Shown: positions 3,323 through 54,735 of the stretch, piece after piece
Layout of the letters: each line of letters begins with the position of its first letter
How positions within the stretch are numbered: position 1 is the first letter of the stretch
Assembly: GCF_003790525.1 (NCBI RefSeq)
Contig: NZ_CP033635.1
From: Escherichia coli
GTDB lineage: Bacteria; Pseudomonadota; Gammaproteobacteria; Enterobacterales; Enterobacteriaceae
Reading direction: 5' to 3' (one strand)
Length of the DNA stretch: 64,000 nucleotides
Position numbers and translations under genes: made by a program
Notes under the pieces: model-generated
The model's database searches: none
What the model was told of the DNA's origin: nothing
Seen by the model: the letters and a program-made list of their open reading frames with translations, nothing else

Positions 3323-4815
3323 AATGTGTGCTCCTTGATGCGGGCGTGAAAGCCCTCAAGTGCGGCAATGAGATGCTGATAGCGTTGGTATTTTTGTTGG
3401 TAAAGCTGATGTGCGGTCATATCCGGCAGCAGGGTGCGTACCGGGTGCTGTAAATCACGTTGGGCTTCGCTGAAATCGCGATAAACTCCGGTGCCGACGC
3501 GGGCGGCAAGTGCCGCACCAAAGCAGCCGGTTTCTTCCACCTGCGGCAGCTCGATACGCAGACCGCTGACGTCCGCCAGCATTTGCATCCAGACATCGGA
3601 ATGCGCCGGGCCGCCAGTGACGCGCAGGGTGTGCACATCAGTAAAACGTTCGCGCATCCGGTTGAGATGGGTCATATGGCTGAACACCACGCCTTCATAA
3701 ATGGCCTGCAACAGGTGTGCGCGGGTATGAATGGCCTGCATCCCGTAGAAACCGCTGGTCATCTCCAATCCGGCGTTGCTGCCGTACAGGAACGGCAGGA
3801 AAAAGAGATCGCCCCCGGCCTTCGGCAAGCTGGCAACGGCCTGGTTAATCTCATCAAACGAGATTTCTCCCCACTGTGCGGTAAACCATTCGAGGTTGCC
3901 GGAAGAGGTGGGGCTGGCTTCGTGAACGATAAATTGACCATCGTTAACGTAGCGACCATAGACATACGGATGCGCTTCACCGTCACGTAAACCACGGGTT
4001 ATGCCGCTGGTCACCGCCCAGGTGCCCATCACCGCATTGAGGGTAAATTCGTCTTCGATCCCGGCACAGAGTGCGGTGGAAACCACATCAAACAGGCCGC
4101 CGACAACGGGCGTACCCGCTTTCAGACCGGTCAGTGCGGCTGTCTGAGCGGTGATTTCCCCGCAAATTTCGGCAGATCCGACAACAGGCGGCAGGGCGTG
4201 GTTGATTTCAGCGATCCCCAGCCAGTCGGTGAGGCACGGGTCATATTCCTCAAGACTCATGTTGTAGAGGTTGGACTCGGAAATATTGCTCTCTTCGCAA
4301 CCTTTGACGCCGGTTAAACACCAGCGCAGATAGTCGTGCGTCATCATTACGCAGCCAATTTGCGCGTAGCGTTCCGGTTCGTGCTCTTTCAGCCAGCGTA
4401 ACAGCGACACCGGATGCCCGGTCCACAAGGTTTGTCGGGTCAGCGGGTAGAGTTTTTCCGGGATGCCATCTTCCTGCCAGCGACGAACGATTTCCATCGC
4501 CCGGCGGTCCGAGGACAAAATAGCATTCCCGAGCGGCTTGTCGTTTTTATCCAGCAAAAACAAGCCCTTTCCCTGTGCGGAGATACCGATACCCACTATT
4601 TGCTCCCCGCTGACACCAGAATGAGTAAGCAGGGTGCGAATGACAGCCATGCAGCATTGCCACAGTTCTGCCATATCGCGCTCTGCCCAGCCTGGCTGCG
4701 GGCTTAATGCGCACAGCGGCAGGCGCTGCACGCCTGCCTCCCGGCCTTCGCGGTCATACAGCCCGGCTTTCAGCCAGCTACCGCCACAATCTAACCCCAG
4801 CCAGTATTGCGTCAT
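3319..4815 (-). CDS. lyxK: L-xylulose kinase (FGGY carbohydrate kinase)
   Basis: 498 aa FGGY kinase; 4 bp overlap with sgbH. Confidence 0.9.
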   Translation of the reverse strand: MTQYWLGLDCGGSWLKAGLYDREGREAGVQRLPLCALSPQPGWAERDMAELWQCCMAVIRTLLTHSGVSGEQIVGIGISAQGKGLFLLDKNDKPLGNAILSSDRRAMEIVRRWQEDGIPEKLYPLTRQTLWTGHPVSLLRWLKEHEPERYAQIGCVMMTHDYLRWCLTGVKGCEESNISESNLYNMSLEEYDPCLTDWLGIAEINHALPPVVGSAEICGEITAQTAALTGLKAGTPVVGGLFDVVSTALCAGIEDEFTLNAVMGTWAVTSGITRGLRDGEAHPYVYGRYVNDGQFIVHEASPTSSGNLEWFTAQWGEISFDEINQAVASLPKAGGDLFFLPFLYGSNAGLEMTSGFYGMQAIHTRAHLLQAIYEGVVFSHMTHLNRMRERFTDVHTLRVTGGPAHSDVWMQMLADVSGLRIELPQVEETGCFGAALAARVGTGVYRDFSEAQRDLQHPVRTLLPDMTAHQLYQQKYQRYQHLIAALEGFHARIKEHTL

Positions 4816-31219: not shown

Positions 31220-31372
31220 ATGCCGCAGAAATATAGATTACTTTCTTTAATAGTGATTTGTTTCACGCTTTTATTTTTCACCTGGATGATAAGAGATTCA
31301 CTGTGTGAATTGCATATTAAACAGGGGAGTTATGAGCTGGCGGCGTTTTTAGCCTGCAAATTGAAAGAGTAA
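31220..31372 (+). CDS. hokA: Hok-family type I toxin; locus disrupted because IS150 lies 32 bp upstream
   Basis: 50 aa MPQKYRLLSLIVICFTLLFFTWMIRDSLCELHIKQGSYELAAFLACKLKE; hok-like mRNA 5' sequence (gtgcttgagactgtttgtctcag) is found on the far side of IS150 near 29675. Confidence 0.85.
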   Translation: MPQKYRLLSLIVICFTLLFFTWMIRDSLCELHIKQGSYELAAFLACKLKE

Positions 31373-34615: not shown

Positions 34616-35275
34616 TTACAGTGGGCTTAAGGTAATTTCTACACGGCGGTTTTGCGCCTTACCTTCTGCGGTGCTGTTGCTGGCGATTGGGTTAGCCGGG
34701 CCAAGGCCTTGAGTACGGATGCGGCTGGCGTCCACGCCCTGGGTGATCAACGCGCTGGCAACGGAATCCGCACGCTGCTGGGAGAGACGCATGTTCAGGT
34801 CGTGCCCCCCCGTGCTGTCGGTATAACCAATCACGTTAACCGCCGTTTTCGGATACTCTTTCAGTACCATTGCCACGCCGGTCAGGGTGTTAGCGCCCGC
34901 CGGTTTCAGGGTTGCGCTGCTGCTGTCGAAGGTCACATTGTTCGGCATATTGAGGATAATGTTATCCCCGCTGCGGGTTACGCTAACACCAGTGCCGCGC
35001 ATTTTGTCACGCAGCTTCGCTTCCTGCACATCCATGTAATAACCAACGCCGCCGCCCAGAGCTGCGCCTGCTGCTGCGCCAATGAGCGCGCCTTTACCGC
35101 GATCTTTCTTCGAAGAAGAGAGCGCACCAATACCCGCGCCAACGAGAGAGCCCAGACCTGCGCCGATAGCAGATTTACCTGCTTCGCGTTCGCCGGTGTA
35201 AGGGTTAGTTGTACAGCCAGATACCGCCAGAGCGCCACTCACTACGGCGGCAATAAGATAAACACGTTTCTTCAT
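34616..35275 (-). CDS. yiaD: OmpA-domain outer-membrane lipoprotein
   Basis: 219 aa; lipobox VSGC; glycine-rich linker; C-terminal OmpA-like domain. Confidence 0.88.
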   Translation of the reverse strand: MKKRVYLIAAVVSGALAVSGCTTNPYTGEREAGKSAIGAGLGSLVGAGIGALSSSKKDRGKGALIGAAAGAALGGGVGYYMDVQEAKLRDKMRGTGVSVTRSGDNIILNMPNNVTFDSSSATLKPAGANTLTGVAMVLKEYPKTAVNVIGYTDSTGGHDLNMRLSQQRADSVASALITQGVDASRIRTQGLGPANPIASNSTAEGKAQNRRVEITLSPL

Positions 35276-35427
35276 TGTTAATCCTTAATAACCTTTTTAT
35301 TCTTTGCCACGGGTTCCGTGGCGGGAGATTATGCCGCGTGAACATGAAGATTATTCCTGGGAATACTCGGAAATTTGTAAGTAATATTTAACTGCTCAAT
35401 ACATCTAACCTTTCAGGAGTCTTCGGT

Positions 35428-37761
35428 TTGGCCAACTCATCCTCACGATATTCCGTTCTGACTGCCGCCCACTGGGGGCCTATGCTGGTTGAAACCGACG
35501 GCGAAACCGTGTTTAGCTCGCGTGGCGCGTTAGCCACAGGAATGGAAAACTCCTTGCAGAGCGCGGTTCGCGACCAGGTTCACAGCAATACGCGGGTGCG
35601 ATTTCCAATGGTGCGCAAAGGCTTTCTTGCGTCACCGGAAAATCCGCAAGGCATTCGTGGGCAGGATGAATTTGTTCGCGTGAGTTGGGATGAGGCGCTG
35701 GAGCTTATTCACCATCAACATAAACGCATTCGTGAGGCTTATGGTCCGGCATCGATTTTTGCGGGTTCCTACGGCTGGCGTTCAAACGGCGTGCTGCATA
35801 AGGCCTCGACATTATTACAACGCTATATGGCGCTGGCAGGCGGTTATACTGGGCATCTGGGGGATTATTCGACCGGCGCGGCACAGGCGATCATGCCGTA
35901 TGTCGTGGGGGGCAGCGAAGTTTATCAACAGCAAACCAGTTGGCCGCTGGTGCTGGAACATAGCGATGTCGTGGTGCTGTGGAGTGCTAACCCACTCAAT
36001 ACGCTGAAAATTGCGTGGAATGCATCCGATGAGCAGGGGCTTTCTTACTTTTCCGCACTGCGTGACAGCGGGAAAAAGCTGATCTGCATTGATCCAATGC
36101 GATCGGAAACCGTCGATTTCTTTGGCGATAAAATGGAATGGGTGGCACCGCACATGGGCACCGATGTTGCGCTGATGCTGGGGATCGCCTATACGCTGGT
36201 GGAAAATGGTTGGCACGACGAAGCGTTTCTGGCGCGTTGCACCACAGGTTATGCCGTCTTCGCCTCTTATTTGCTGGGCGAGAGTGACGGAATAGCGAAA
36301 AACGCCGAATGGGCGGCAGAGATTTGTGGTGTTGGCGCAGCGAAAATCCGCGAGCTGGCGGCTCTTTTCCACCAAAATACCACCATGCTGATGGCTGGCT
36401 GGGGAATGCAACGTCAACAGTTTGGCGAGCAAAAGCACTGGATGATCGTCACGCTGGCGGCAATGTTGGGGCAAATCGGCACACCCGGCGGCGGTTTTGG
36501 TCTTTCTTACCATTTTGCCAATGGTGGTAACCCCACGCGCCGCGCTGCGGTGCTCTCTTCCATGCAGGGTAGCTTGCCTGGCGGCACCGATGCGGTGGAT
36601 AAAATCCCTGTTGCCCGCATTGTTGAAGCACTGGAAAACCCCGGTGGCGCATATCAACATAACGGTATGGACCGACATTTCCCGGATATTCGTTTTATCT
36701 GGTGGGCGGGCGGTGCCAACTTTACTCATCATCAGGATACCAATCGCCTGATCCGTGCCTGGCAAAAACCGGAGCTGGTGGTGATCTCTGAATGCTTCTG
36801 GACGGCTGCGGCGAAACACGCGGATATCGTTCTGCCTGCGACCACTTCGTTTGAGCGTAATGATCTCACCATGACCGGCGATTACAGTAATCAGCATCTG
36901 GTGCCGATGAAGCAAGTGGTGCCTCCACGTTATGAAGCGCGTAATGATTTTGATGTCTTTGCCGAGTTGAGTGAACGTTGGGAGAAGGGCGGCTATGCGC
37001 GGTTTACGGAAGGAAAAAGTGAGCTGCAATGGCTGGAAACGTTTTATAACGTTGCCCGGCAGCGCGGGGCAAGCCAGCAGGTTGAATTGCCGCCATTTGC
37101 TGAGTTCTGGGAAGCCAACCAGTTAATTGAGATGCCGGAAAACCCGGACAGCGAGCGGTTTATTCGCTTCGCCGATTTTCGCCGCGATCCGCAGGCGCAT
37201 CCATTAAAAACCGCCAGCGGTAAGATTGAAATCTTCTCGCAGCGTATTGCCGATTACGCTTATCCGGATTGCCCTGGGCATCCAATGTGGCTGGAGCCGG
37301 ACGAATGGCAGGGCAATGCCGAACCGGAACAGTTGCAGGTACTTTCTGCTCATCCGGCACATCGTCTGCACAGCCAGCTGAATTACAGTTCTCTGCGCGA
37401 ATTGTACGCGGTGGCAAATCGTGAGCCTGTCACCATTCATCCTGACGATGCCCAGGCGCGCGGCATACAAGATGGCGATATTGTTCGGTTGTGGAACGCA
37501 CGCGGGCAAATTCTTGCCGGAGCGGTCATTAGCGAGGGAATTAAACCTGGCGTGATTTGCATTCATGAAGGGGCATGGCCGGATCTGGATTTAACCGCTG
37601 ACGGTATTTGTAAAAACGGCGCGGTGAACGTTCTGACCAAAGATCTCCGCAGCTCGCGGCTGGGGAATGGCTGTGCGGGTAATACGGCGCTGGCATGGCT
37701 GGAAAAATACAACGGTCCGGAACTGACACTTACAGCGTTTGAACCACCGGCCAGCTCATAA
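35428..37761 (+). CDS. bisC: biotin sulfoxide reductase (molybdopterin oxidoreductase)
   Basis: 777 aa. Confidence 0.93.
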
Positions 37762-38170
37762 TCCAGGTGGGTAGTTGGGTTTCATCTTGCCATGCGCAGT
37801 CGACAATGTGAAAACCCTGCGCATGGTAAAAATCTATCGCCGGTTGATTTTTTTGATAAACCTCCAGCATCAGATGGGGATGGCGCTGCTGCACATACTG
37901 CATTAGCGCCTTACCAATACCGCGTCTGACGGCCTTCGGTGCGACAAACATTGCAGCCAGAAACCGGCCTTCCATAATGCTGACAAAACCGAGAAGCTTA
38001 CCGTCTTCTTCCCAGACCCAGTTTTGCGCGTTGGCAAGATAGGCATCCCGCACCAGCGGAATGCAATCACGCCAGTAATTCGCTTTTATAAAGGGATGCC
38101 CCCAGGTTGTACTTTCCAGCCACAGTTCGAGGATCGCGGGGAGTTCTGAACGTTGCGCTTCCCGAATCAT
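37730..38170 (-). CDS. yiaC: GNAT-family N-acetyltransferase
   Basis: 146 aa; 3' end overlaps the bisC 3' end by 32 bp. Confidence 0.88.
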
Positions 38171-38730
38171 GGTTTATTTCCCGGATAGCAACAGCAGCCA
38201 ACCACATGATCATTCACCAGCCCACATGCCTGCATAAAGGAGTAACAGATTGTGGTACCAACAAACTTAAAACCACGCTTTTTCAGGGCTTTAGATAGAG
38301 CGTCGGAGGCGGGCGTAGATGTAGGGATTTCGCTCAACGTTGTGGCTTGTGTCACCTGTGGTTGATGATTGACAAACGACCAGACAAAGTCGGCAAACGG
38401 TTCGCCGTTCTGTTCCATTTGCAGGTACGCCCGCGCATTACCAATAATTGCCTGAATTTTCCCGCGATGGCGGATAATCCCGGCGTCCTGTACCAGTCTT
38501 TCGACATCCTCTTCCTGCATTGCTGCCACCTTCACCGGATCGAACTGATGAAAGCTGGCGCGATAGTTTTCGCGTTTTTTGAGGACGGTGATCCACGATA
38601 ATCCAGCCTGCTGCCCTTCCAGGCAGATCATTTCGAACAGTTTTTTACTGTCAGTTTCAGGCACGCCCCATTCATTATCATGGTAGGCAATATAAAGCGG
38701 ATCCTGACTCACCCAGCCGCAACGTTCCAT
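38167..38730 (-). CDS. tag: DNA-3-methyladenine glycosylase I
   Basis: ATG (complement) at 38728..38730 gives 187 aa starting MERCGWVSQDPLYIAYHDNEWGVP; ORF track over-extends the N-terminus. Confidence 0.93.
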   Translation of the reverse strand: MERCGWVSQDPLYIAYHDNEWGVPETDSKKLFEMICLEGQQAGLSWITVLKKRENYRASFHQFDPVKVAAMQEEDVERLVQDAGIIRHRGKIQAIIGNARAYLQMEQNGEPFADFVWSFVNHQPQVTQATTLSEIPTSTPASDALSKALKKRGFKFVGTTICYSFMQACGLVNDHVVGCCCYPGNKP

Positions 38731-38881
38731 ACTTTCCCTCGCTATGTACCCGATCGTAAAAATTTCAGCCGCTTTTCTTGACGCATCGGTGAAAAAGTCA
38801 ATATTTAATACAGGGCTACTATGCCCGATATCCTTCATACAATGACAATAATATTGCCGAATTCGGCTCTTCCCTGGAGTC

Positions 38882-39586
38882 GTGTTAATGATCATAAAAA
38901 AAAGCGGTGGTCGCTGGCAGCTAAGCCTGCTGGTGAGCGTGGTAATCAGTGCCTTTTTTCTCAACACAGCTTACGCCTGGCAACAAGAATATATCGTTGA
39001 TACGCAACCCGGACATTCCACAGAGCGTTACACCTGGGATAGCGATCATCAACCTGATTACAACGATATTTTGTCGCAACGTATTCAAAGTAGCCAAAGG
39101 GCGCTGGGACTGGAAGTCAATCTGGCGGAAGAAACCCCTGTGGATGTCACCAGTAGTATGAGTATGGGGTGGAATTTTCCTTTATATCAACAGGTTACAA
39201 CCGGTCCGGTCGCGGCATTACATTACGATGGCACAACCACCTCGATGTATAACGAGTTTGGCGACAGTACTACCACGCTGACCGATCCGTTATGGCATGC
39301 CAGCGTGAGTACTTTAGGCTGGCGTGTTGACTCCCGGCTTGGCGATCTCCGACCCTGGGCGCAAATCAGCTATAACCAGCAATTTGGCGAGAATATCTGG
39401 AAGGCGCAATCAGGCCTGAGCCGGATGACGGCGACAAACCAGAACGGCAACTGGCTGGATGTCACCGTAGGCGCTGATATGTTGCTCAATCAAAATATTG
39501 CTGCCTATGCGGCGCTATCTCAGGCAGAAAATACCACTAACAATAGCGACTATCTGTATACGATGGGGGTTAGTGCCAGATTTTAA
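38882..39586 (+). CDS. yhjY: outer-membrane autotransporter beta-domain-like protein
   Basis: 234 aa with signal peptide and C-terminal aromatic residue (…GVSARF). Confidence 0.75.
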   Translation: MLMIIKKSGGRWQLSLLVSVVISAFFLNTAYAWQQEYIVDTQPGHSTERYTWDSDHQPDYNDILSQRIQSSQRALGLEVNLAEETPVDVTSSMSMGWNFPLYQQVTTGPVAALHYDGTTTSMYNEFGDSTTTLTDPLWHASVSTLGWRVDSRLGDLRPWAQISYNQQFGENIWKAQSGLSRMTATNQNGNWLDVTVGADMLLNQNIAAYAALSQAENTTNNSDYLYTMGVSARF

Positions 39587-39814: not shown

Positions 39815-41023
39815 ATGACACCTTCAAATTATCAGCGTACTCGCTGGCTGACACTCATCGGTACTATCATTACCCAGTTTGCTCTGGGGTCGGTTTATAC
39901 CTGGAGTCTGTTTAACGGTGCGCTTTCTGCCAAGCTGGGGGCTCCTGTAAGCCAGGTTGCTTTCTCTTTCGGCTTGTTAAGTCTGGGGCTGGCAATTTCA
40001 TCTTCTGTTGCGGGCAAATTGCAGGAACGTTTTGGTGTTAAACGCGTCACTATGGCTTCCGGCATTTTGCTGGGATTAGGTTTCTTCCTGACAGCACATT
40101 CCAACAACCTGATGATGCTGTGGTTAAGCGCCGGTGTGTTGGTTGGTCTGGCGGATGGTGCGGGTTACCTGTTGACGCTCTCTAACTGCGTGAAGTGGTT
40201 TCCGGAGCGTAAGGGACTTATCTCTGCTTTTGCTATCGGTTCTTATGGTCTGGGCAGCCTGGGTTTTAAATTTATCGACACGCACCTGCTCGAAACGGTG
40301 GGTCTGGAAAAAACCTTTGTTATTTGGGGCGCGATTGTACTGGTGATGATTGTCTTTGGCGCAACGTTAATGAAAGATGCGCCGAAGCAGGAAGTGAAAA
40401 CCAGCAATGGTGTGGTGGAGAAGGACTACACCCTGGCAGAGTCGATGCGTAAACCGCAGTACTGGATGTTAGCGGTTATGTTCCTGACTGCGTGCATGAG
40501 TGGTCTGTATGTGATTGGTGTAGCGAAAGATATCGCTCAAAGTCTGGCGCATCTTGATGCAATTTCCGCAGCCAATGCTGTGACGGTTATTTCCATCGCC
40601 AACCTTTCTGGTCGTCTGGTGCTGGGCATTCTGTCTGACAAAATCGCCCGTATCCGTGTTATCACCATTGGTCAGGTGATATCGCTGGTGGGTATGGCGG
40701 CCCTGCTGTTTGCACCATTGAATGCAGTGACGTTCTTTGCAGCGATTGCCTGCGTGGCGTTTAACTTTGGCGGCACTATCACGGTGTTCCCGTCACTGGT
40801 CAGTGAGTTCTTCGGCCTCAATAACCTGGCGAAAAACTACGGTGTGATTTATCTCGGTTTCGGTATCGGCAGCATTTGTGGGTCGATTATCGCCTCACTG
40901 TTTGGCGGCTTCTATGTGACTTTCTACGTCATTTTTGCCCTGCTGATTCTGTCTCTGGCGCTTTCAACGACCATTCGCCAGCCAGAGCAGAAAGTATTGC
41001 GTGAAGCGCATGGCTCCCTTTAA
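39815..41023 (+). CDS. yhjX: MFS transporter (oxalate/formate antiporter family), pyruvate-inducible
   Basis: ATG at 39815 gives 402 aa starting MTPSNYQRTRWLTLIGT. Confidence 0.9.
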   Translation: MTPSNYQRTRWLTLIGTIITQFALGSVYTWSLFNGALSAKLGAPVSQVAFSFGLLSLGLAISSSVAGKLQERFGVKRVTMASGILLGLGFFLTAHSNNLMMLWLSAGVLVGLADGAGYLLTLSNCVKWFPERKGLISAFAIGSYGLGSLGFKFIDTHLLETVGLEKTFVIWGAIVLVMIVFGATLMKDAPKQEVKTSNGVVEKDYTLAESMRKPQYWMLAVMFLTACMSGLYVIGVAKDIAQSLAHLDAISAANAVTVISIANLSGRLVLGILSDKIARIRVITIGQVISLVGMAALLFAPLNAVTFFAAIACVAFNFGGTITVFPSLVSEFFGLNNLAKNYGVIYLGFGIGSICGSIIASLFGGFYVTFYVIFALLILSLALSTTIRQPEQKVLREAHGSL

Positions 41024-50935: not shown

Positions 50936-51410
50936 AAAGTCCTGTCCAGAAAGAAGTCGGCCTCGCAAAAATGAATAAACCCAGTTTCTCTTGCGCAACA
51001 GGTGGAGAAGTCGAATACGCAGTATGTAAAAAATGAGGCAACAGATTCACTGGGGAGGTCGCGAGGAGGCGCAATTCTACAAAATTGCGCATTTCACTAC
51101 CAGTCTGGAGTCAGCCCGGATATGAACTGCAACTATTGCAAATAAAGAAATTAAGCTGGAATGCATCACGCAATGAGGAAGATTGCCGGGTGCTGACGGT
51201 AAAAAGCAATCGTAGAATCAGCGGCAAGCCGGAAAGGTTCCGGTGAGGCGCAATGTTGCGGGGGCTTAATCCCTGGTGGCATTGGTTGCTGGAGAGAGAA
51301 AACCCCCGCATATTGCAGGTATGCACCTGACAACATCACGGGGGCTAATCTTGAACCTAGACCACTCAAGAATAGCCGCGAAACGTTGTCATTACAACAC
51401 AGGCGGCTAT

Positions 51411-51518
51411 ATGACGCTCGCAGAACTGGGCATGGCCTTCTGGCATGATTTAGCGGCTCCGGTCATTGCTGGCATTCTTGCCAGCATGATCGTGAACTGG
51501 CTGAATAAGCGGAAGTAA
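51411..51518 (+). CDS. ldrD: Ldr-family type I toxin peptide (35 aa), copy 1
   Basis: MTLAELGMAFWHDLAAPVIAGILASMIVNWLNKRK. Confidence 0.85.
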   Translation: MTLAELGMAFWHDLAAPVIAGILASMIVNWLNKRK

Positions 51519-51893
51519 CGTGTCAGACGGGCGTCAGGCTGCCGTAATGGCAATTTGCGCCCGGACCAGGCCGCAGGGATAAAACTCTGCGGCCTTTTTC
51601 GTAAGAAAAATGCAACGGTTGCAAGCGGATAATATTCTGCGGAATGCGCAGCACAGAGTGAAGACGTGACGGATTCCGGAACAGAAAAACAGTCGTAGAA
51701 TCAGCGGCAAGCCGGAAAGGTTCCGGTGAGGCGCAATGTTGCGGGGGCTTTATCCCTGGTGGCATTGGTTGCTGGAGAGAGAAAACCCCCGCACGTTGCA
51801 GGTATGCACCTGACAACACCACGGGGGCTAATCTTGACTCTAGACCACTCAAGAATAGCCGCGAAACGTTGTCATTACAACACAGGCGGCTAT

Positions 51894-52001
51894 ATGACGC
51901 TCGCAGAGCTGGGCATGGCCTTCTGGCATGATTTAGCGGCTCCGGTCATTGCTGGCATTCTTGCCAGCATGATCGTGAACTGGCTGAACAAGCGGAAGTA
52001 A
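51894..52001 (+). CDS. Ldr-family type I toxin peptide (35 aa), copy 2
   Basis: identical peptide to copy 1. Confidence 0.85.
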   Translation: MTLAELGMAFWHDLAAPVIAGILASMIVNWLNKRK

Positions 52002-52377
52002 CGTGTCAGACGGGCGTCAGGCTGCCGTAATGGCAATTTGCGCCCGGACCAGGCCGCAGGGATAAAACTCTGCGGCCTTTTTCGTAAGAAAAATGCAACG
52101 GTTGCAAGCGGATAATATTCTGCGGAATGCGCAGCACAGAGTGAAGAAGTGATGGATTTCGACGAACAAAAATGGCCGTAGAATCAGCGGCAAGCCGGAA
52201 GGGTTCCGGTGAGGCGCAATGTTGCGGGGGGCTTTATCCCTGGTGGCATTGGTTGCTGGAGAGAGAAAACCCCCGCACGTTGCAGGTATGCACCTGACAA
52301 CACCACGGGGGCTAATCTTGACTCTAGACCACTCAAGAATAGCCGCGAAACGTTGTCATTACAACACAGGCGGCTAT

Positions 52378-52485
52378 ATGACGCTCGCAGAGCTGGGCAT
52401 GGCCTTCTGGCATGATTTAGCGGCTCCGGTCATTGCTGGCATTCTTGCCAGTCTGATCGTGAACTGGCTGAACAAGCGGAAGTAA
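52378..52485 (+). CDS. Ldr-family type I toxin peptide (35 aa), copy 3 (M26L)
   Basis: MTLAELGMAFWHDLAAPVIAGILASLIVNWLNKRK. Confidence 0.85.
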   Translation: MTLAELGMAFWHDLAAPVIAGILASLIVNWLNKRK

Positions 52486-52861
52486 CGTGTCAGACGGGCG
52501 TCAGGCTGCCGTAATGGCAATTTGCGCCCGGATCAGGCCGCAGGGATAAAACTCTGCGGCCTTTTTCGTAAGAAAAATGCAACGGTTGCAAGCGGATAAT
52601 ATTCTGCGGAATGCGCAGCACAGAGTGAAGACGTGACGGATTCCGGAACAGAAAAACAGTCGTAGAATCAGTGGCAAGCCGGAAGGGTTCCGGTGAGGCG
52701 CAATGTTGCGGGGGGCTTAATCCCTGGTGGCATTGGTTGCTGGAGAGAGAAAACCCCCGCACGTTGCAGGTATGCACCTGACAACATCACGGGGGCTAAT
52801 CTTGAACCTTAACAACTCAAGAATAGCCGCGAAACGTTGTCATTACAACAGAGGCGGCTAT

Positions 52862-52969
52862 ATGACGCTCGCAGAACTGGGCATGGCCTTCTGGCATGAT
52901 TTAGCGGCTCCGGTCATTGCTGGCATTCTTGCCAGTCTGATCGTGAACTCGCTGAATAAGCGGAAGTAA
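52862..52969 (+). CDS. Ldr-family type I toxin peptide (35 aa), copy 4 (M26L, W31S)
   Basis: MTLAELGMAFWHDLAAPVIAGILASLIVNSLNKRK; tgg to tcg change. Confidence 0.8.
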   Translation: MTLAELGMAFWHDLAAPVIAGILASLIVNSLNKRK

Positions 52970-53055
52970 CGTGTCATGCGGGCGTCAGGCTGCCGTAATG
53001 GCAAGTTGCGCCCGGACCAGGCCGCAGGGGTGAAACTCTGCGGCCTTTTTCGTTC

Positions 53056-54735
53056 TTATTGCGGGTAAGGCACCCAGTCGCCGCCGTTCAGGCGAACGTA
53101 CGGTTTATCCTGGTATTGAATAACTACTGCATTTGAGTTCTCGGAGACCGGTGCTGTTTGTGGCAACCCACTGGTGAGTTTTTTCCAGTCAACATTGTCT
53201 TCGGTGAAAATCTTGCCATCAAGAACCCGAACCACCAGATCGGAGATAGCCAGGAAGCTGCTCGGTTGGTCGATGACAATCGGTGCCCCCTGATGTGGTG
53301 CCTTCATGCCGAAGAATTTCACCCCAACGGGGACGTCTGTGATAGACGGGCTAGGGATATCACGTAGGCCAGATACCTGCATTCTGTCGCCCTTCAGCGC
53401 GCCGCCGTGTTCTGGCACCACGACCACCATCACTTTACGACCCGATTTCTCCAGTTCAGTAAAGAAGGCGTCCAGTTCATCAAAGAATTTCTGCGCCCGC
53501 GCTTTGTAATCCGCTGTTTTGCTGACGCCCGGATAATGGTTGCCGTCATGCAGTGGAAGCGTGTTGTAGAACGTGGCACTACGGCTGTTTTTATCTTTTT
53601 CGGTAACGTCCAGCCAGCGGTTAAGCACGGCGGTATCGTCATAAACCGGCGAACCATCAAAGCCCAGCAAAATAACCGGCAGATTTGTTTGATCCATCAA
53701 TTCGGTCTGCATGCCACCATTTTCGCGAACTTCTTTCAAAAAACCGCCGAACTGGCCGTTATGTCCCATCATCAGGTGCTGGGTAAAGCCCAGTTTCGAC
53801 AGGTTATCAAACAGATAGCAGTCATTATTTGCCGGTTGATACAGATTAGTGTGCGAAGTCTGCCCGCAGCTGGCGCGCAGTAAACGGATCGCCGCCGGGC
53901 CACTGTGGGAGGTGGCGGAGTTAAAGTTCTTGAACTCAATATCGAAATGCGACCACAGCGGATGCGACATCAACCCGGCGGCTTCAATATCCGACCAGGA
54001 AAGCGAACAGATATTAATCACCAGTAGTTCAAATGGCTGAGCATCAGCGGGCAGCGAAGACGGGAAGGTCGATTTACGTTTCGCCTCCGCGTTATAGAAA
54101 TTATTCAGCCAGGCGTTAAGGTTCGCCGTTGTTGGCGGTGCAGTTTGTGCGGGCATATCACCCACTACCGGTGCGCCACCCGTCGCCGCAACGGTTGCCG
54201 CTGCGTTACCACCCGTCGTTGTTACAGTGGTCGTCGGTTGACCGGCAGGCCACAAGGAGAAACTTGGTCCCGCCAGGGTAAGTACGTTCAGCCATAGCAG
54301 AATGGCAACCACAAAAACGGTAATGCGAATCCATTGTGACAGGAATAACCAGGCCACTAATAAAACAAAAATGGCCCCAATCATCTGCCAGTTAATAAAG
54401 CGTGTGACAAGGTCGATTAAATAATCGGTACTGAACCCCGCCACCTGCGAACCCTGGCTCATTATGCTTTCCGGGCCAGGCAACCAGGTGTCATGCCAGA
54501 ACAAAGCAAAGCCGATCGGCAGGGCAATCCAGTGGCGTAAGCGATGCAGGCTGTAGCGCGGAATGGGCATCAGCAGAAACGCGGCAAACACCAGATTGAG
54601 GAGCGGATGGAAGTTAAGATATCCTGCCCACAACAGGCCGAACTTAACCAGAAAATAGAAGTTCCAGCCGGAAAGGCCGCGCCAGTATTGCCAGAGGGAA
54701 GAAGGCATGGCGGTATTTTGCGTAAATTGAGTCAT
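53056..54735 (-). CDS. bcsG: cellulose phosphoethanolamine transferase
   Basis: 559 aa; N-terminal membrane domain plus alkaline-phosphatase-superfamily domain. Confidence 0.92.

Follow-up and report, generated by a model that had tools for sequence, protein, structure and literature searches.

A 32-bp convergent coding overlap of bisC and yiaC in Escherichia coli, kept across Enterobacteriaceae loci

The genes bisC and yiaC of Escherichia coli run toward each other and share 32 bp of coding sequence, at positions 37730-37761 of the 64,000-nucleotide window that we analyzed (the window being the whole stretch of DNA). The reading we favor, with a probability of about 0.8, is that this is a genuine, long-conserved dual-coding overlap which has no dedicated terminator, whose transcripts are terminated by Rho within the opposing gene, and which persists as a frozen by-product of gene packing. 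The overlap is real but of an ordinary kind, and it had been recorded before, in reference annotations and in a published list of excludons. Added here are its presence in every Enterobacteriaceae locus examined, the conserved structure encoded at both ends, and the interlocking of each stop codon with codons of the partner gene.

Results

Geometry of the bisC/yiaC overlap

bisC occupies 35428-37761 on the plus strand and encodes a biotin sulfoxide reductase of 777 aa, ending in a TAA stop at 37759-37761 (ORF list and RefSeq). yiaC occupies 37730-38170 on the minus strand and encodes a GNAT lysine acetyltransferase/lactylase of 146 aa, a call that agrees among the ORF list, RefSeq, homologues and an AlphaFold2 model. 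Its TAA stop is the reverse complement of the tta at 37730-37732, and the raw sequence and the ORF list are concordant on the ends of both genes. The shared segment, TTACAGCGTTTGAACCACCGGCCAGCTCATAA, is therefore coding on both strands: its 32 bp hold both stop codons, the final nine codons of each gene and two bases of the tenth-from-last codon. The residues encoded are T769-S777 of BisC, with part of the L768 codon, and M138-L146 of YiaC, with part of the I137 codon. The overlap length modulo 3 is 2, and the register sets first codon positions opposite each other and second positions opposite third ones, an arrangement called “phase 1.” Intergenic space between the two genes is zero.

The initial annotation had described the bisC stop as lying within the 3' end of yiaC in a 32-bp convergent overlap, and this proved exact by sequence, by the ORF list and by RefSeq annotation of both SMS-3-5 and MG1655. 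There is no earlier stop in yiaC, nor does bisC end upstream; in each case the TAA is the first in-frame stop of a conserved, experimentally characterized gene. The 801 bases around the junction are 100% identical to E. coli SMS-3-5, for which RefSeq gives bisC and yiaC exactly these ends. In K-12 MG1655, RefSeq places yiaC (b3550) at 3713652..3714092 and bisC (b3551) at 3714061..3716394, again a 32-bp overlap, and the overlap is thus already in the reference annotation. The junction region was found in 5,421 of 5,426 complete E. coli genomes.

Two observations concern bisC itself. In E. coli BE104 (NZ_CP040643.1, 3764-4009) the gene has been deleted, and what remains is its first 153 nt together with ~84 nt of foreign sequence; similarity to our window restarts 8 nt outside the yiaC stop, yiaC is intact, and the deletion looks to have been engineered in a laboratory strain. 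Separately, the ORF list contains a 404-codon frame antisense inside bisC (35815-37029, minus strand) that is covered by no annotation and probably represents the kind of shadow ORF that GC-rich genes give rise to.

By annotation, the window contains 10 convergent gene pairs, two of which overlap. The second is formed by a 23-codon hypothetical ORF and the 3' end of hokA, which share 24 nt (31349-31372), and the counterpart pair, ysaE-hokA, is also in the ExcludonFinder list (PMC12288877). Elsewhere in the window (~51297-53453) lies a tandem array of five genes, at ~484 bp spacing, that RefSeq assigns to the Ldr family of type I toxins, and only four rdlD antitoxin RNAs reach the Rfam gathering score in that region against the five toxin genes.

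Conservation of the overlap across Enterobacteriaceae

A YiaC scan of our genome collection returned only Escherichia loci, and wider taxa were reached through a protein search and exact-sequence contig look-ups. The overlap was kept in all 14 of the other loci obtained, from other Escherichia species and other Enterobacteriaceae genera; it measured 32 bp in 12 of them and 38 bp in two. Five further Escherichia loci (E. albertii, E. whittamii and cryptic-clade strains) all had the 32-bp form, with substitutions inside the overlap. The same length (yiaC at 4001-4441 and bisC from 4410 in the coordinates of the fetched loci) was found in Salmonella, Citrobacter amalonaticus, C. rodentium, a Raoultella-like strain, Enterobacter ludwigii and Pseudescherichia, as well as in two other Enterobacteriaceae loci. 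The 38-bp form belongs to Kosakonia and Lelliottia, where yiaC spans 4001-4447, the overlap spans 4410-4447 and YiaC has 148 aa.

Across 11 representative taxa from nine genera, 23 of the 32 columns in the overlap are invariant. Mean pairwise identity is 0.87 in the overlap, compared with 0.73-0.85 in the bisC flank and 0.81, falling to 0.65, in the yiaC flank, making the overlap locally the most conserved stretch of DNA, above either flank. Double purifying selection would yield this pattern.

The position of each stop codon is written into its partner. For yiaC, the stop codon is complementary to the TTA within the BisC Leu-Thr codons CTT-ACN (CTT-ACA here). BisC has two Leu-Thr pairs (..L-T-L-T-A..), and it is the Leu using CTT rather than CTG that sets the YiaC stop; in Kosakonia and Lelliottia, a synonymous Leu change (CTT/CTG) in bisC shifts the yiaC stop by two codons. 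Reciprocally, bisC stops at a TAA or TGA that complements bases of the YiaC Ile-Met codons, ATT-ATG or ATC-ATG. Each stop is thus locked in conserved partner codons, which argues that the arrangement is held by double purifying selection and not by a demonstrated regulatory need.

The gene order yhjX-yhjY-tag-yiaC-bisC is kept in nearly all fetched Enterobacteriaceae loci, with tag uncalled in C. rodentium; eptB lies upstream of yhjX except in C. rodentium, and yiaD lies downstream of bisC except in Kosakonia. The RefSeq name of yhjX (39815-41023) is now L-lactate MFS transporter, and the gene sits three genes from yiaC, a reported lysine lactylase.

Rho-dependent termination past the yiaC stop

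RefSeq places tag, the presumed upstream operon partner of yiaC, at 38167-38730 on the minus strand. In E. coli, the stop of tag and the start of yiaC share 4 nt (ATGA, 38167-38170), which points to co-transcription of the two genes. In the other genera with tag called (L008, L009, L011-L015, L019 and L020), Tag has 192-193 aa and its gene overlaps yiaC by 20-23 nt (4001-4023). Thus tag has changed its 3' end, whereas the yiaC/bisC overlap has kept its place.

Beyond the yiaC stop, the minus strand would be read as C-rich, G-poor untranslated RNA antisense to bisC (37450-37729), a candidate Rho loading region. In 80-nt windows from 37729 to 37450, the C fraction is 0.30-0.36, the G fraction 0.17-0.25 and the C/G ratio 1.4-1.8; the median ratio for the whole of antisense bisC is 1.25, and the tract is moderately higher, within the upper range and not distinctive. 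This candidate tract lies upstream of a mapped zone of Rho termination. Adams et al. 2021 (PMC7815308) used DirectRNA-seq with and without bicyclomycin (BCM) to map Rho termination regions in 800-nt windows, and their supplementary file 2 lists a region at MG1655 3714344(+), labeled “antisense bisC.” Reads upstream and downstream of it number 90 and 23 without BCM and 60 and 112 with BCM (Rho score 7.3, p 5.5e-14). We verified the coordinate mapping: the peak of this bicyclomycin-sensitive region, at the coarse resolution of the map, falls 252 nt past the yiaC stop, at 37478 on the minus strand of our window. On the yiaC strand, the published K-12 data thus contain more readthrough when Rho is inhibited, and they show, at coarse resolution, that the tag-yiaC message runs into antisense bisC and is stopped by Rho. 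Owing to the 800-nt windows and the low read counts, they do not pinpoint the true 3' end of the yiaC strand. A Term-seq table contains no 3' end between MG1655 3713700 and 3714299, and the SMRT-Cappable-seq supplements mention neither bisC nor yiaC.

Transcript overlap and the excludon question

Overlap of the yiaC and bisC transcripts in vivo is supported by the literature, through the Rho region just described and through ExcludonFinder (PMC12288877, NAR 2025, Table 1), which lists yiaC-bisC among 165 convergent excludons of MG1655. A convergent excludon is defined there by RNA-seq transcript boundaries that overlap in at least 50% of 58 data sets. Because the two ORFs themselves overlap, such a listing is near-automatic once both genes are expressed and adds little. 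According to the same authors, validation of double-stranded RNA with p19 is not feasible for convergent pairs (PMC12288877).

These observations bear on the alternative that the overlap has been kept because expression of bisC and of tag-yiaC is mutually antagonistic, through polymerase collisions and/or RNase III cleavage, making the pair a functional excludon. Apart from the listing, this explanation draws on reports in the literature that excludon pairs as a class have higher synteny than other neighboring pairs, and that head-on RNA polymerase collisions influence termination at convergent E. coli genes; it would also fit the conservation of overlap and gene order in every Enterobacteriaceae locus examined, from at least nine genera. 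We nevertheless consider it unlikely. Overlapping ORFs force full-length transcripts to overlap in any case, dual-coding constraint already accounts for the conservation, and the low read counts at the locus imply that collisions are rare. Nor is a functional link between BisC and Tag/YiaC evident. That the exact overlap is kept as a switch, by which BisC, acting in the repair of oxidized methionine and biotin, and Tag-YiaC, acting in alkylation repair and in lysine acetylation/lactylation, antagonize each other's expression as a functional excludon of coding sequences, we regard as quite improbable. Exact conservation is expected under selection for a regulatory overlap as well, and alone it cannot separate a frozen accident from a functional excludon. 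The earlier remark that the arrangement “allows mutual antisense or transcriptional interference” is accordingly a permissive statement: an antisense or collision effect of the overlap is possible, and regulation, be it by an excludon or by colliding polymerases, is allowed but unsupported.

Transcript termination on the bisC side

The initial annotation had also held that the two mRNAs must overlap at their 3' ends with no intergenic terminator. In a scan with terminator and promoter consensus models, no hit of either kind fell near the junction, no site from 36400 to 38390 resembled an intrinsic terminator, and the terminator-like hits overall were as many as the shuffle expectation. Rfam returned no family at the junction, either in an E-value scan of 35000-39500 (even at E = 1) or in a gathering-threshold scan of the whole window. 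When both strands of the junction were folded, z-scores ran from -1.3 to +0.3, which is not unusually structured. The pairing of a GC-rich stem with flanking A and U tracts, as in a bidirectional intrinsic terminator, is not present between bisC and yiaC. Together with the zero intergenic space and the published K-12 transcript overlap, these results bear out the earlier claim.

Past the bisC stop, C is about equal to G for ~100 nt, after which C exceeds G (ratio 1.3-1.9) over 37880-38080 on the plus strand. From base composition, this tract, antisense to yiaC, is a candidate Rho loading region, and we infer that bisC transcripts would be ended by Rho inside antisense yiaC or tag. Supplementary file 2 of Adams et al. 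2021 has no entry on the minus strand (K-12 orientation) in the yiaC/tag region; expression of bisC is probably too low in LB.

A stem-loop that forms on both strands lies within yiaC at 37787-37829, 26-68 nt past the bisC stop. Its stem is a 10-bp perfect palindrome, CCATGCGCAG...CTGCGCATGG, with folding energies of -21.1 kcal/mol on the plus strand and -19.3 kcal/mol on the minus strand, and its flanks read ..CATCTT and TAAAAAT.., with no U tract. It might be supposed that this element, despite its missing U tract, terminates transcription or places collisions in both directions, or that it forms a hairpin protecting the 3' end of bisC mRNA; stem-loops are known from the literature to position polymerase collisions at convergent genes. 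Its counterpart is strong (-21 to -27 kcal/mol) in Salmonella, C. rodentium, the Raoultella-like locus and Kosakonia, and the Salmonella stem has one compensatory pair, which requires amino-acid changes in both arms (Q->L, C->S). However, the counterpart is weak in K-12 (-10.9 kcal/mol) and in C. amalonaticus (-6.6 kcal/mol), flanking U or A tracts are lacking, and the arms encode the conserved H-A-Q and C-A-W of YiaC, such that protein constraint can explain the stem. Moreover, the 64-kb window has 108 loci of equal or greater stability. On these four grounds the hairpin was set aside as evidence, and we judge a role for it in termination or transcript protection to be very unlikely.

Both C-termini are genuine

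Because 3' ends are set by the first in-frame stop and not by start choice, the only question for the coding overlap is whether both genes are real and read to those stops. For BisC, the characterized biotin sulfoxide reductase, the last 300 residues align to solved DMSO/TMAO reductase structures right to the chain ends. The tail ..LTAFEPP aligns to the final residues of 1eu1, 1e60 and 7l5i; its counterparts are ..YAGAPVTVTVFDTP in 1eu1 and ..YTGPAVTLTGFVAP in 1e60, and beyond the aligned end the 1eu1 chain has two more residues and the 1e60 chain three. Since BisC ends with its structural homologues, its C-terminus is ancestral and not an extension.

YiaC has been characterized as a lysine acetyltransferase and lactylase (PMC6199490, PMC9636275). 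Residues P134, T135, W136, M138 and W140 do not vary among 24 aligned homologues (54-97% identity). In an AlphaFold2 model (mean pLDDT 94.8), the last beta-strand runs from 133 to 140 and is followed by a low-confidence tail of six residues. The overlap encodes the end of that strand, four residues that include the invariant M138 and W140. At 146 aa, YiaC is about as long as its paralogue YjaB (147 aa). We conclude that the overlap is true dual coding. A recent 3' extension of one gene into the other was considered and rejected, given that BisC ends with its structural homologues and that YiaC matches YjaB in length.

Long overlaps in prokaryotic annotations are often mispredictions, and some assemblies carry N-terminally extended YiaC calls of 191-214 aa, but the notion that one ORF is unreal or is not translated to its annotated stop is effectively refuted by 3' ends that do not depend on the start codon, by the experimental characterization of both proteins, by conserved C-termini that match the ends of their homologues, and by the overlap in 14/14 other loci.

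Discussion

The dual-coding reading can be put as a mechanism. RNA polymerase transcribing tag-yiaC must run past the yiaC stop into bisC, and RNA polymerase transcribing bisC must run past the bisC stop into yiaC. The RNA made past each stop is untranslated antisense RNA, the normal substrate for Rho. For the tag-yiaC transcript, K-12 measurements place a Rho-dependent region ~250 nt inside antisense bisC, and we propose an equivalent event for bisC. At their 3' ends the two mRNAs are therefore complementary over at least 32 nt, and probably over a few hundred.

In practical terms, constructs that delete or tag either gene at its 3' end need to take the common 32 bp into account. The locus is also a tidy textbook example of stops locked in partner codons, where one protein becomes longer through a synonymous change in the other gene. 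Were a reciprocal regulatory effect shown, the pair would be one more validated excludon.

Among known systems, the tag-yiaC side resembles other E. coli cases in which Rho terminates untranslated 3' and antisense RNA, in its BCM-sensitive readthrough past the yiaC stop and its untranslated C-rich RNA. It differs in that the terminator lies inside the coding sequence of the opposing gene, and the matching event for bisC is a predicted one. The bidirectional intrinsic terminators described by SEnd-seq and the RNA polymerase collision model share with our locus the convergent layout and a stem-loop on both strands near the boundary. In contrast to them, bisC/yiaC has no intergenic region, no A/U tracts and no match in the terminator scan, and its stem is poorly kept in K-12.

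The likeness to excludons is that the yiaC and bisC transcripts overlap and that the E. coli excludome names the pair. Classic excludons, however, overlap through long UTRs, whereas here it is the coding sequences that overlap; and the outcome that defines an excludon is mutually exclusive expression with RNase III processing, while bisC/yiaC is likened to the class by its transcript overlap.

The closest relatives are the convergent overlapping pairs of prokaryotes, which form a common and well-described class. Huvet and Stumpf (PMC4161906) counted 663 overlapping adjacent pairs in E. coli, 75 of them convergent, and phase 1 is reported for nearly half of convergent overlaps when 4-nt overlaps are set aside. 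Like these, bisC and yiaC are two real genes on opposite strands with common 3' ends in phase 1, and the length of their overlap shifts through movement of a stop codon, as in Kosakonia and Lelliottia. Compared with the majority of convergent overlaps, which are 4 nt long, that of bisC/yiaC is longer (32 bp), and its ends encode conserved structure and not dispensable extensions. With 3' coding nucleotides shared between genuine C-termini and retained at all 14 other loci, nothing essential sets bisC/yiaC apart from convergent overlapping pairs.
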